A stretch of DNA of 64,000 bases from a virus (Duplodnaviria; Heunggongvirae; Uroviricota; Caudoviricetes): the IMG/VR virus record IMGVR_UViG_2534681834_000006; one strand, written 5' to 3'. The notes beneath the pieces were generated by a model. The model ran no database searches and was not told where the DNA came from. It worked only from the letters and a program-made list of their open reading frames with translations. Position numbers and translations under genes: made by a program. Shown piece after piece: positions 31,586-33,542 of the stretch (positions are counted from its first letter, which is position 1; each line of letters opens with the position of its first letter).

Positions 31586-31762
31586 ATTAGTGTAATATCG
31601 ACTCAATGAATCGTGATTTATAGAGCGATTTAGCTGTTAGCCGCGACAGGCGCGGCGGCAAGTATGGCGGGGTAGTGACTCCTTCCCCATCATGACGCCG
31701 AGTTGCCAGGTTGACCATACGCCTAAGTGGCAACACCGAAGTGCGTTACGAGCTTCCAGTTT

Positions 31763-31789
31763 GCCCATCTTCGGGTGGGCGTTTTTTTT
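31763..31789 (+). terminator. rho-independent terminator
   Basis: GCCCATC-TTCG-GGTGGGC followed by GTTTTTTTT. Confidence 0.7.
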
Positions 31790-32255
31790 CAGGGTTTTCG
31801 TCATGGTTAGCGACTTTGCGGCGGTTTAGAAACTGACCATTAAAGTAAATGCAAACGATGATCTGATGATGGTAGCGGCCTAAGAAGCCAGACGCCACGG
31901 GGTATGAGTCGTCCCCCGTCAAAAAATCGACCGCAGAGTGTCCCCGTCTGTGTATTAGGGAACGGGGAGGCACTACAGGTAAGGGCGCTGGTTCGATTAA
32001 CCAGATGAGCGAGAAGGGGCCATCTTTTTGGTCAGCGTCCTTACCTGTTACGTCCTTTTTCATTCGGCGTAACAGCAATTGCTTTTAGCAATTTAGGAAT
32101 AACGTCTTGCTACGGGTATATCCCGTCATGCTGAAGGCGCTAATCACGCTGGAAGCCAGGGTTATGCATCCCCTGTTACCGAATTGCAGCCAGGGCGCGG
32201 TGCGCCGAAAAGCATACGGAGGTGGAAGCCCTCGCCGGAGACGTACCCGGCAAGT

Positions 32256-32331
32256 GATGGTGTAGCTCAGCGGTTAGAGCGGTTGACTGTTAATCAACGG
32301 GTCGATGGTTCAAATCCATCCACCATCGCCA
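32256..32331 (+). tRNA. tRNA-Asn (anticodon GTT)
   Basis: 76 nt; 7-bp acceptor stem, D-arm TAGCTCAGCGGTTAGAGC, anticodon loop CTGTTAA, T-arm GGTTCAAATCC, CCA end. Confidence 0.85.
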
Positions 32332-32333
32332 AT

Positions 32334-32409
32334 GCCGGTTTAGCTCAGTTGGTAGAGCGCCTGCCTTGTAAGCAGGATGTCAGCGGTTCGAGTCCGTTAA
32401 CCGGCACCA
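32334..32409 (+). tRNA. tRNA-Thr (anticodon TGT)
   Basis: 76 nt; acceptor GCCGGTT/AACCGGC, anticodon loop CTTGTAA, T-arm GGTTCGAGTCC, CCA end. Confidence 0.85.
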
Positions 32410-32846
32410 ACACAACAGGTAAGGGTATTTTGCGACGTCGGAGATCGCCGTGCTTGGCAGAGGGTTCGAATCCCTACGAAGTACCCTTACCGTTGTGATG
32501 AAGTGCAGCTCTTAGAAGCAACCAGAAGATAAGCATCTGGCTTCACAACATAAACCGCAGGAACGACCAATAAACGGTAGTCCGTATGGAGAACACCCCG
32601 TTGAGGAAGAGGCCTGGCCGGAACCGTAACCGGCACTACAACGTTGAGAACACTGGCGTAACGGGGTCATATCCCAATCTACGAATAAATGTTGCGTTGC
32701 AGCGTGACAATCAGTGTTCTCAACGTTGTGGTGAATGCACAGGCTGATGTGCCGCAACTACAGTAGTGCGCGCTTTGCGGGGCTTGCTACAACCCTGTGT
32801 CGGAGTTCAGCACCGACCATCACAATTTATTTAGAAACTGTCACCC

Positions 32847-33260
32847 ATGAGTGCGAGAACGGTAATTATGCAGAAAGAGCAGTTTGTTATTTCTTTAGTG
32901 GTTAGCACCAGTTATCAGGTCGATAAAGTTTCGAAAGAAGATGCATCTGAAATTGATGTTGTAGATGTGTTCGGTAACGAACTCAAAATACCACTTCGTG
33001 AATTTAATGAAATAGCAGCTCCGTTGGGCAAAATTGACGGCTTGGAGGAATACCACAAGCGAATGATTATCGAACGTGCTCAGCTATGCCAGCGCATAAA
33101 TAAGCTTGTTCGATTCATTGGAACAGATAAATTCCTCACTATAGACCAGTGCAAGCAGTTGGATTTGGAAATTCAGCTCGGAAGCATGATTGATTATCGA
33201 AAAGCTCTTGATGCTCGCTTGGTCCAATTAACCAAAAACTATCCGTCAGCAAGCAGCTAA
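32847..33260 (+). CDS. hypothetical protein
   Basis: 137-aa ORF. Confidence 0.5.
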   Translation: MSARTVIMQKEQFVISLVVSTSYQVDKVSKEDASEIDVVDVFGNELKIPLREFNEIAAPLGKIDGLEEYHKRMIIERAQLCQRINKLVRFIGTDKFLTIDQCKQLDLEIQLGSMIDYRKALDARLVQLTKNYPSASS

Positions 33261-33542
33261 TTATAAATTTGGGGCGGATGGTTAGTCCGCCGTTAACTCC
33301 ATGAAACGGAGTACGCAACAGGTAAGAGCATTCTCCTGTAACGGGTTCATATCCCAATCTACAGGTCCACCAAGAATGCTCTTTCCGTTGCGGTGAATGC
33401 GGCTAAGCGCACGCGGGGAAATGGTTATATCAGTCCATTCATTTCTCCTTGTTTCCCCGTCCACGGTGGATAACCAGCCAAAGGACACCGGGAGGCACCC
33501 GGCACCGCAGCTTTTTTATTCGTTAAATAATGGAGTGAGAGG

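Follow-up and report, generated by a model that had tools for sequence, protein, structure and literature searches.

Clamp hairpins beside the tRNA genes of a P1-like phage-plasmid: most likely RNA-processing elements of a widespread modular non-coding RNA array

Introduction

What are the long hairpins that cluster around two tRNA genes in the virus record IMGVR_UViG_2534681834_000006 (Caudoviricetes)? The stretch of this record that was analysed, 64,000 nucleotides (nt) in length, is referred to as the window. A preliminary description, made from the letters of the window alone, had reported between positions 31590 and 33420 a family of extended inverted repeats with tRNA-like motifs, and had offered degenerate tRNAs, processed small RNAs or protein-binding structures as possible readings. 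We find that the four hairpins are all sense-strand RNA clamp stem-loops of a single conserved family, here called H elements. Together with closed units that lie between them (U units), tRNA genes and a short tag template, they make up a mobile, modular array of non-coding RNAs that is common to many unrelated enteric phages. The locus is best seen as part of this widespread array, in which the clamp hairpins most likely serve RNA processing. The preliminary description had missed the cloverleaf-like units between the hairpins, the very wide distribution, which includes phage lambda, and the tag template, which resembles that of transfer-messenger RNA (tmRNA). In the literature searched, no mention was found of the H and U sequences or of the tag peptides.

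Results and discussion

Four hairpins of one family

All four of the inverted repeats reported near the tRNA genes are present. They lie on the + strand and are listed below with their stem lengths in base pairs (bp) and their fold z-scores.

31975-32048, + strand: H element 1 (type A), stem of 16-19 bp, directly 3' of the tag/pseudoknot element, z -5.1; arms 31975-31990 / 32033-32048, 16 nt, 94%
32411-32497, + strand: H element 2 (type B), CACAAC-A-GGUAAGGGUAUUUUG...CGAAGUACCCUUACC-GUUGUG, z -5.3; arms 32418-32430 / 32479-32491, 13 nt, or 15 bp with G.U pairs, plus 6 bp of CACAAC/GTTGTG
32634-32733, + strand: H element 3 (type E), CACUACAACGUUGAGAACACUGG...CAGUGUUCUCAACGUUGUGGUG, stem of about 23 bp and a loop with two small hairpins, z -7.1; arms 32634-32655 / 32712-32733, 22 nt, 95%
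33314-33392, + strand: H element 4 (type D), CGCAAC-A-GGUAAGAGCAUUCU...AGAAUGCUCUUUCC-GUUGCG, z -6.1; arms 33321-33334 / 33373-33386, 14 nt, 93%

These folds surpass those of dinucleotide-shuffled sequences, none of 200 shuffles folding as well. The perfect 18-mer inverted repeat noted previously (32638-32655 / 32712-32729) is contained in the 22-nt arms of hairpin 3. The shared motifs were recovered too, GTAACGGGKTCATATCCCAATCTAC occurring twice at 96% identity and CCGTTGYGGTGAA(T)GC three times, and a 25-nt motif in the loop of H4 is common to H3. At permissive thresholds, Rfam returned no known RNA family for the hairpins in the window and 15 related loci.

Six long hairpins with strict Watson-Crick pairing are found in the whole window, as compared to about 0.8 in shuffled sequence, and the family motifs are limited to 31.97-33.40 kilobases (kb) on the + strand. 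Repeated inverted repeats in a non-coding stretch, with a true terminator nearby, could be taken for generic selfish or structural repeats, such as repetitive extragenic palindromes or elements like miniature inverted-repeat transposable elements (MITEs), or for terminators or attenuators. However, the motifs keep to a single interval and a single strand of the window, the copies within one genome differ from each other, unlike MITE copies, and zero H elements are followed by a U-run, by scan and by reading of the sequence. We hold this explanation to be extremely improbable.

The comparison of the H elements drew on 16 annotated relatives along with over 100 viral contigs. Common to all four is a frame of CACAAC, a bulged A, GGUAAGRGC or GUUGAG, a variable part, CUYWMC and GUUGUG; the stem consensus is CACAAC-A-GGUAAGAGCAUUG...CAGUGCUCUUUCC-GUUGUG, with compensatory changes. 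The stem of about 20 bp has a fixed base, consisting of CACAAC, the bulged A, GG and a U.U mismatch, which is followed by 10 bp or more, one of them a conserved U.G pair. The loop measures about 30-80 nt, and the inner stems vary by type yet remain complementary. Orthologues of H1 in P1, D6, SJ46 and SSU5-like plasmids differ in stem sequence with complementarity kept, the closing pair of H4 covaries (G-C/C-G) in relation to the family consensus, and the 81 copies of the H3 type represent 21 sequence variants.

When 31 distinct H stems were placed at fixed alignment columns, 94.9% of the cells were paired, and seven pairs varied on both sides. The structural covariation among homologous regions that the preliminary description had set as a test is present. 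No shuffle out of 500 equalled the score for pairing or that for covariation, and the controls slid along the alignment gave 36-61%. The conserved wobble position is UG in 18 stems, UA in 10 and CG in 2, the U.U mismatch and bulged A are also kept, and there are 39 G.U cells versus at most 11 other mismatches. The U.G wobble, the excess of G.U, the U.U mismatch and the bulged A are all specific to the strand that is sense for the tRNAs, and they point to RNA as the form in which the stem is conserved. This fixed-column test superseded an earlier strand test that was based on polymorphisms within types.

Loops, and the relation of the hairpins to tRNA

The hairpins are in close contact with tRNA genes. 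Scans with ARAGORN and the Rfam tRNA model, of the kind proposed in the preliminary description, call the following three tRNAs only.

32256-32331, + strand: tRNA-Asn (GTT), ARAGORN, Rfam tRNA 74.5 bits
32334-32409, + strand: tRNA-Thr (TGT), ARAGORN, Rfam tRNA 74.9 bits
34615-34690, + strand: tRNA-Ile2/Met (CAT), ARAGORN

H2 starts 1 nt past the CCA of tRNA-Thr. Among the approximately 90 listed viral loci with this tRNA-Thr, a family hairpin begins 7 nt past CCA in every one; in one SSU5-like plasmid the hairpin directly 3' of tRNA-Thr is type E, the type of H3. A family hairpin likewise follows tRNA-Ser. What changes at the position after tRNA-Thr is the loop, for which related phages hold at least eight unrelated alleles. 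Across 21 genomes, nearly all from Enterobacterales, the stem is almost invariant and each loop is different, with a size of mostly 42-53 nt.

The T-loop-like sequences that had been reported in the loops are borne out for hairpin 2, whose loop forms the T-arm-like minihelix AGGG-UUCGAAU-CCCU, a valid T-arm, but not for hairpins 1, 3 and 4. The string GGTTCGATT in hairpin 1 is without a closing stem and P1 reads GGTGTGATT at this place, so that it is not a T-arm; hairpin 4 has no T-loop at all. The tRNA-3'-end-like GGCACYA does precede three of the hairpins by 6-7 nt, but this 7-mer is common, with 23 copies in the window, and one of the three copies is the genuine 3' end of tRNA-Thr. It is against this background that the hairpins may be asked to be degenerate or pseudo-tRNA genes, or tRNA mimics. 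Hairpin 2, of 74 nt, places a canonical T-arm beside a 7-bp inner stem, and three hairpins have the tRNA-like GGCACYA ahead of them. Five T-arm-like minihelices are present in 4 of 38 distinct loop alleles, as compared to 0.18 expected (P<0.0005), and the hairpins occupy sites that in relatives hold extra tRNAs (Tyr, Ser, Arg). On the other hand, neither ARAGORN nor the Rfam tRNA model matches the hairpins, even at an expectation value (E) of 10 or less, the T-arm is missing from 34 of the 38 alleles, the string in hairpin 1 is not kept in P1, and the conserved stem of about 20 bp, by which the family is defined, is found in no tRNA. As a general reading, degenerate tRNAs are therefore very unlikely and are largely refuted at the level of the family; the idea survives in the form that tRNA fragments gave rise to some of the loops. 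Some H loops are probably tRNA-derived or tRNA-mimicking.

Other loops may have a role of their own. A 58-nt loop core is shared at 87-97% identity among lambda, rV5-like, siphovirus and P1-like phages, where it is held by four different closing stems. The occurrence of the same core in four different clamps implies that at least some loops are themselves conserved RNAs, and in some cases the function of an H loop may be that of a conserved small RNA. Two other readings of the loops were tried and rejected: as cis-antisense RNAs, since complementarity within the window is not above chance, and as intrinsically structured RNAs as a general property.

Closed units between the hairpins

The GUUGUG that forms the 3' strand of an H element doubles as the 5' strand of the U unit that comes next. 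Three such units are found in the window.

32492-32642, + strand: U unit a, GUUGUGAUG...CCGG-AACCGUAA-CCGG-CACUACAAC, closing strands complementary at 8/9 positions (read directly)
32725-32826, + strand: U unit b (class 1), GUUGUGGUG-AAU-[GCACA GGCUGA UGUGC]-variable-[GUCGG AGUUCAGCA CCGAC]-CAUCACAAU
33387-33517, + strand: U unit c (class 2), STnc100/PasD-type, GUUGCGGUG...CACCGGGAGGCACCCGGCACCGCAGC and then a U6 run, fold z -3.9

Class 1 has the consensus GUUGUGGUG-AAU-[GCGCA GGCUGA UGCGC]-variable (30-170 nt)-[GCCGG AGAUCAGCA CCGGC]-CACCACAAC. In 22 distinct units of this class, 97.5% of the cells are paired, a value inflated for arm 3 by the placing of its 5' strand at best complementarity; eight pairs vary on both sides, and 0 of 500 shuffles are equal. 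The closing stem of the U units is rich in G.U pairs. The two hairpin loops of class 1 are complementary to each other (GCUGA/UCAGC), with one pair that covaries (GC 15, GU 4, AU 3). Based on this pairing, the class-1 unit is modelled in cloverleaf shape, its two loops meeting much as the D-loop and T-loop do. U unit a is kept in P1, D6, P7 and SSU5-like plasmids; folded alone, it gives a z of -0.2, which is not significant.

U unit c resembles a known RNA. Its positions 33389-33509 match the Rfam model RF02076 (STnc100) at 37.8 bits (E 9e-6), below the gathering score of 47, and its orthologues score 37.8-39.6 bits, with positions 31-147 of the 206 in the model matched. STnc100 and PasD are Hfq-associated small RNAs of prophages. 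An H hairpin ahead of STnc100 is absent in Stx phages. It is noted that the 3' end of the STnc100-like unit (33478-33511, 34 nt) matches at 100% features annotated as clustered regularly interspaced short palindromic repeats (CRISPR) in E. coli NZ_CM128586.1 and NZ_LR025101.1, an identity which suggests that host CRISPR spacers target this part of P1-like plasmids.

A tmRNA-like tag template at the 5' end of the array

Directly ahead of H1 lies a conserved element with a short reading frame.

31810-31970, + strand: conserved 5' element that resembles the mRNA-like domain of tmRNA and aligns across P1-like, SSU5-like, siphovirus and D6 sequences
31851-31883, + strand: tag frame GCA AAC GAT GAT CTG ATG ATG GTA GCG GCC TAA, ANDDLMMVAA*

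The element consists of a leader (GCGACUUUGCGG..UUUAGAAACUGACCA..AAAU), the tag frame, a hairpin that holds the stop codon, a second hairpin and a predicted pairing of pseudoknot type (about 31932-31937 with 31947-31952, and 31942-31947 with 31962-31967). RNAalifold, applied to sequences from eight diverse phages, found seven pairs with compensatory changes. In that alignment the 3' end of the tag and its stop codon are placed within a covarying helix, and a downstream CGCACU/GGUGUG pairing is predicted to cross a GCCC/GGGC hairpin; the pseudoknot PK1 is not established by it. For the leader of the window, a long-range pairing of P2 type, CUUUGCGG / CCGCAGAG, was discarded, as it is not conserved in other phages.

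The SsrA tag of E. coli, ANDENYALAA, is similar to the tag encoded here. The tag frame of the window has no start codon and no Shine-Dalgarno sequence. Among 27 distinct nucleotide versions from many phage groups there are 15 tags, each of exactly 10 codons, including ANDDVVLMAA, ANEEMYLAVA, ANEEVYLAVA, ANDNVFLAVA and ANDEQFLAVA. A minimum spanning tree of the 27 versions contains 26 synonymous and 33 non-synonymous changes, with 22.5% synonymous expected (P=1.9e-4); third codon positions take 31 of the 59 changes, and on the same tree the other two frames carry no coding-type signal. The tag frame is under coding-type conservation. Ordinary translation was considered by two routes and rejected for both: the overlapping AUG frame MQTMI* has no coding signal (7/57 changes synonymous), and the in-frame upstream CUG is not conserved, being CGA in IME11.

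The template is tmRNA-like, yet the element fails the test of a tRNA-like domain, by which a tmRNA is defined. ARAGORN calls none of 44 leader-type elements as tmRNA, as against 38 ordinary tmRNAs from the same 17-mer scan, and makes no tmRNA call in the window. Rfam tmRNA models, including tmRNA_permuted, match the tag site in four independent loci. None of these matches attains the threshold, and the alignments cover only the central and tag parts, chiefly the tag.

Could the array nevertheless be a phage-borne tmRNA-like machine, in which the leader is the tag template and the H/U modules or the adjacent tRNA supply the tRNA-like domain? In a variant of this idea, ACACAAC/GUUGUG would be a circularly permuted acceptor stem from which the connecting H loop is excised, with A as the discriminator and CCA added later. 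The start-less frame and its coding-type conservation agree with such a machine. In nearly all phages examined, the tag is followed by the pseudoknot, a hairpin with the T-loop-like loop GGUGUGAUUAAUAAU, and then ACACAAC-A-H-GUUGUG-U; the U unit is cloverleaf-like, with a kissing contact that resembles D-loop/T-loop; CCA follows 5 of 13 chromosomal U units; and positions 51-311 of the standard tmRNA model align to the element in phage Mijalis, the alignment ending right at the tRNA. In contrast, no G3.U70, no canonical T-arm with acceptor strand and CCA, and no pairing of the 5' and 3' ends of the element were found, and the Rfam matches below gathering score rest on the tag region. In addition, lambda has H and U without any tag element, so that H and U function independently of the tag. 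We consider such a machine unlikely. A broader form of the idea, which we entertain as a tentative possibility, is a mobile non-coding RNA operon with a new tmRNA, either lacking a tRNA domain or cryptically permuted, that adds phage-specific degradation tags (ANDDLMMVAA, ANEEMYLAVA and others), H and U being processing or tRNA-like partners and scaffolds that display exchanged small RNAs. The phage groups covered by this proposal are lambdoid, SSU5-like, FelixO1-like, N4-like, T1-like and probably Vi01-like, the last with a leader match only and no tag seen.

The array as leader of the ban operon

The sequence identifies the window as that of a P1-like phage-plasmid: its identity is 100% with the E. 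coli plasmid NZ_CP122822.1 and, over the array stretch, about 95% with phage P1. Features of the P1 record NC_005856 were mapped onto it with blastn, and on this basis the array region is assigned to the untranslated leader of the C1-repressed ban operon. The remaining features are as follows.

31553-31600, + strand: Pban promoters and bivalent C1 operator Op72, start of the ban operon transcript (homology to NC_005856)
31578: end of dmt (mapped from P1)
31693-31790, + strand: 5' leader RNA with an intrinsic terminator at its end (terminator scan and P1 annotation)
32049-32255, + strand: structured spacer / 5' leader of tRNA-Asn, kept upstream of tRNA-Asn in all P1-like loci
32847-33260, + strand: cargo gene, 137 amino acids (aa), crAss001_48-related (Pfam PF21825, E 3e-15)
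33543-36340, + strand: downstream operon, which begins with a 78-aa membrane-like open reading frame (ORF) (context only)
33760-34587, + strand: SPFH/Band-7 protein (downstream context)
34970-36340, + strand: ban, DnaB homologue (P1 homology)

A palindrome at 31567-31598 lies inside the Pban/Op72 stretch. The terminator that had been read at 31763-31789 was recovered by the scan at 31759-31790, as a stem (31759-31781) with a T8 run, and marks a discrete 5' transcript. In P1, the stretch 31693-31794 is labelled a 'dicF-like region'. A DicF identity was rejected, as the Rfam DicF model gives no match at E<=10 in 30500-35500 or in 31560-32270; the P1 name is unsupported, and the stretch is a terminator-ended 5' RNA. 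Past this terminator, the scan found no + strand terminator-like site within the non-coding array (31790-33540), the sole later match on this strand being 33770-33786, inside the downstream coding region, and a promoter scan of 31400-35100 returned no promoter-like site. The lack of internal promoter and terminator signals fits a single long + strand transcript. The spacer ahead of tRNA-Asn terminates in GCCGG-AGACGUACC-CGGC, which is similar to arm 3 of the U units.

The cargo gene at 32847-33260 runs counter to the earlier impression that the region has almost no convincing ORF. It sits between array modules as an insertion, where the P1 counterpart is 57 nt. Cargo is exchanged at both 32847-33260 and 33543-34587, P1 having instead tciA (TerB-like), tciB and tciC. 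It should also be mentioned that the P1 genes plp and upl, on the minus strand (window 32380-32950), fall wholly within the array of H2, U, H3 and U, and that their frame is split in the window into ORFs of 81 and 49 aa; these two annotations are probably spurious. Two other long inverted repeats of the window, at 45832-45897 and 63864-63955, have arms built from the consensus of the C1 operator, ATTGCTCTAATAA. Rather than members of the hairpin family, these repeats are presumably pairs of operators, either bivalent or looped.

Distribution and turnover of the modules

The same modules adjoin tRNAs in SSU5-like phage-plasmids and are held by the tRNA clusters of rV5 and of the FelixO1-like phage Mijalis. 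In the rV5 cluster, ARAGORN calls a 99-nt tRNA with a four-base anticodon (atcc) directly past a closed unit of lambda type (Rfam tRNA 35.5 bits). The modules are also found apart from tRNAs. In the late leader of lambda (NC_001416), directly past tR' and ahead of gene S, an H element (44,787-44,866) is joined to a closed unit (44,857-44,941). The lambda orf-64 (44,621-44,815) overlaps 6S RNA and the start of this hairpin, which makes its status as a gene doubtful. The late leader of HK633 contains, past PR'/qut, H, a tag element, H and U, and a lambdoid prophage has H-U-H-U past a PL-like promoter. In the Salmonella siphovirus ST1UNAM, the whole array stands alone between promoter-like and terminator-like sequences (read by eye), located between tail genes and on the strand opposite to them. 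A blastn search with the ST1UNAM array found parts of it in 917 phage records of many groups, and modules occur also in N4-like phages, siphoviruses and prophages of many Enterobacterales. H and U modules of the enterobacterial type were seen as well on short contigs titled Martelella alba and a Geobacteraceae metagenome-assembled genome; these two assignments likely reflect contamination or mis-binning.

What distinguishes one relative from another is the presence of whole modules, tRNAs (Tyr, Ser, Arg) or cargo ORFs, and the changes are located at the borders of H and U. The tRNA set of the array varies even among similar phage-plasmids, with Asn, Thr, Tyr, Ser(TGA), Arg(TCT) and Ile2(CAT) observed; one plasmid has Arg(TCT) in place of Asn, with identical acceptor ends shared.

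A turnover located so exactly at the borders raises the question of whether the hairpin bases act on DNA, as recombination linkers or cassette borders, either through homologous boundary sequences or through folded single strands similar to attC sites. Identical flanks enclose unrelated loop alleles, phage 813R1 has an extra U and H between 17-nt repeats of CTTACCGTTGTGATGAA, the stems are almost perfectly Watson-Crick, and the ends ..ACACAAC / GTTGTGR.. resemble the attC cores RYYYAAC / GTTRRRY. However, the cores match at 6/7 and 5/7 positions only, and the extrahelical bases and unpaired central spacer of attC are absent, the stem being continuous save for the bulged A and the U.U mismatch. 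An integrase is not a regular neighbour of the arrays: the P1-like, lambdoid and siphovirus contexts lack one, and a distant tyrosine recombinase is present in SSU5-like plasmids only. Every copy is co-oriented with transcription, and the U.G wobble and the other strand-specific features of the stem are those of an RNA. A DNA-level function of this kind is, in our judgment, quite unlikely as the explanation of the hairpins.

Proposed mechanism of processing

We propose that H stems are processing and insulating stems of RNase III type on the sense strand of a polycistronic non-coding precursor, a reading by analogy to which we give about an even chance. Pban would drive the array, as leader of the ban operon, into one + strand precursor. 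Cleavage within an H stem would then part the neighbouring modules and free the 3' ends of tRNAs for trimming, the U units and loop RNAs would be released as discrete stable species, and the RNA downstream of the cut would be left with a base-paired 5' end. Whatever the role of the RNA, the identical borders CACAAC / GUUGUG may give homology for recombination, and such border homology would account for the gain, loss and exchange of modules and cargo at precisely these places. The reading of the hairpins as processed small RNAs or protein-binding structures, one of those offered in the preliminary description, agrees with what is found: sense-strand structures with covariation, located in a leader between promoter and gene and adjacent to tRNAs.

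By stem geometry, the H stems are candidate substrates of RNase III. Including CACAAC/GUUGUG they measure 19-27 bp, in line with a substrate length of at least 20 bp of mostly Watson-Crick pairing on the transcribed strand. RNase III is the enzyme that frees tRNA-fMet from its metY-nusA-infB transcript, and DicF maturation involves it too. The comparisons establish the structure of the H and U elements, their strand, their siting beside tRNA 3' ends, their occurrence in transcribed leaders and their turnover by modules; from these precedents, and from that of the lambda late transcript, we infer the cleavage of H stems and the fates of its products. According to its title, the paper by Daniels et al. 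(1988; Virology 167:568; ref 49 of PMC7547250) describes sites of RNase III processing on the late transcript of lambda in vivo, and these sites may coincide with the lambda H stem.

Several observations weigh against RNase III-type processing of an RNA stem. Conservation of the H base sequence extends across genera; a pure processing site would have no need of it, and it hints at a specific protein partner or another role. The stems are nearly perfect Watson-Crick helices, and maintenance of a palindrome at the DNA level could give the same outcome. The strand signal in minimum free energy is weak, the + strand being more stable in 14 of 21 cases. Polymorphisms within types give a weak signal as well, with 18 changes that form G.U and 11 that form A.C, counted with a hairpin finder that is biased to G.U. 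The loops have no extra structure on average relative to shuffles (mean z -0.3), and the search for antisense targets of the loops in the window found complementarity of at most 12 nt, the level of chance.

Implications

A modular RNA system missed by current annotation turns out to be shared by the ban leader of P1 and the stretch of lambda between tR' and S. The order of clamp stem, closed unit and tRNA suggests a concrete grammar of processing, and the array may explain how phages package tRNAs, small RNAs of STnc100/PasD type and cargo genes as exchangeable cassettes. If the tag template is translated, enteric phages would manipulate ribosome rescue and protein tagging by means of an RNA without a canonical tRNA-like domain, which would raise the questions of how trans-translation initiates and which proteins phages target for degradation. 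For annotation, the conserved frames provide simple signatures with which phage and plasmid genomes, in their thousands, can be annotated for these elements.

Comparison with known systems

With tmRNA, the tag element shares a start-less frame of 10 codons that opens with GCA AAC GA. and ends in hydrophobic-Ala-Ala, a UAA predicted to be held in a hairpin, predicted pseudoknot-type pairing downstream, and the context UAAAU|GCAAACGAU, identical to the consensus of the permuted Rfam model. It differs in that no acceptor stem with G3.U70 and no T-arm followed by CCA are detectable here, the Rfam scores remaining below threshold. The truncated tmRNA of mycobacteriophage DS6A is the reverse case, a tRNA-like domain without a tag (PMC11915505).

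Conserved ends, an interior that varies strongly in both sequence and length, an imperfect palindrome and a location at the borders of exchangeable cassettes are common to H elements, attC sites and lambdoid boundary sequences. As compared to attC, H elements are without an integron integrase, extrahelical bases and a central unpaired spacer, and their strand-specific G.U pairs point to RNA. STnc100 has the same closing stem as U unit c and the same 3' hairpin CACCGGGAGGCACCCGGCACC, and for both STnc100/PasD and U unit c the setting is an untranslated leader of a phage, with tRNAs and cargo genes (TerB, for example) close by. The class-1 units, in contrast, share only the frame and are absent from Rfam, and Hfq binding is known for the prophage small RNAs only.

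RNase III processing hairpins, such as the early R sites of T7, the N-leader, sib and late-leader sites of lambda, metY-nusA-infB and the stems of rRNA, likewise have stems of about 20 bp with small irregularities, and like H they lie between functional RNAs of a long transcript, directly downstream of tRNAs. The H elements differ in that the sequence of their base is kept from genus to genus, their large loops can be exchanged and their partnership with U units is fixed, features that have not been described for the classical sites; for H, cleavage is proposed by analogy. The T4 species 1 and 2 RNAs, GOLLD and ROOL are structured non-coding RNAs in or beside phage tRNA gene clusters and are processed from common precursors, features that the array would share. 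They have no sequence or model similarity to the array, which has no Rfam match to them; the array is small, modular and repeated, and it occurs also without tRNAs.

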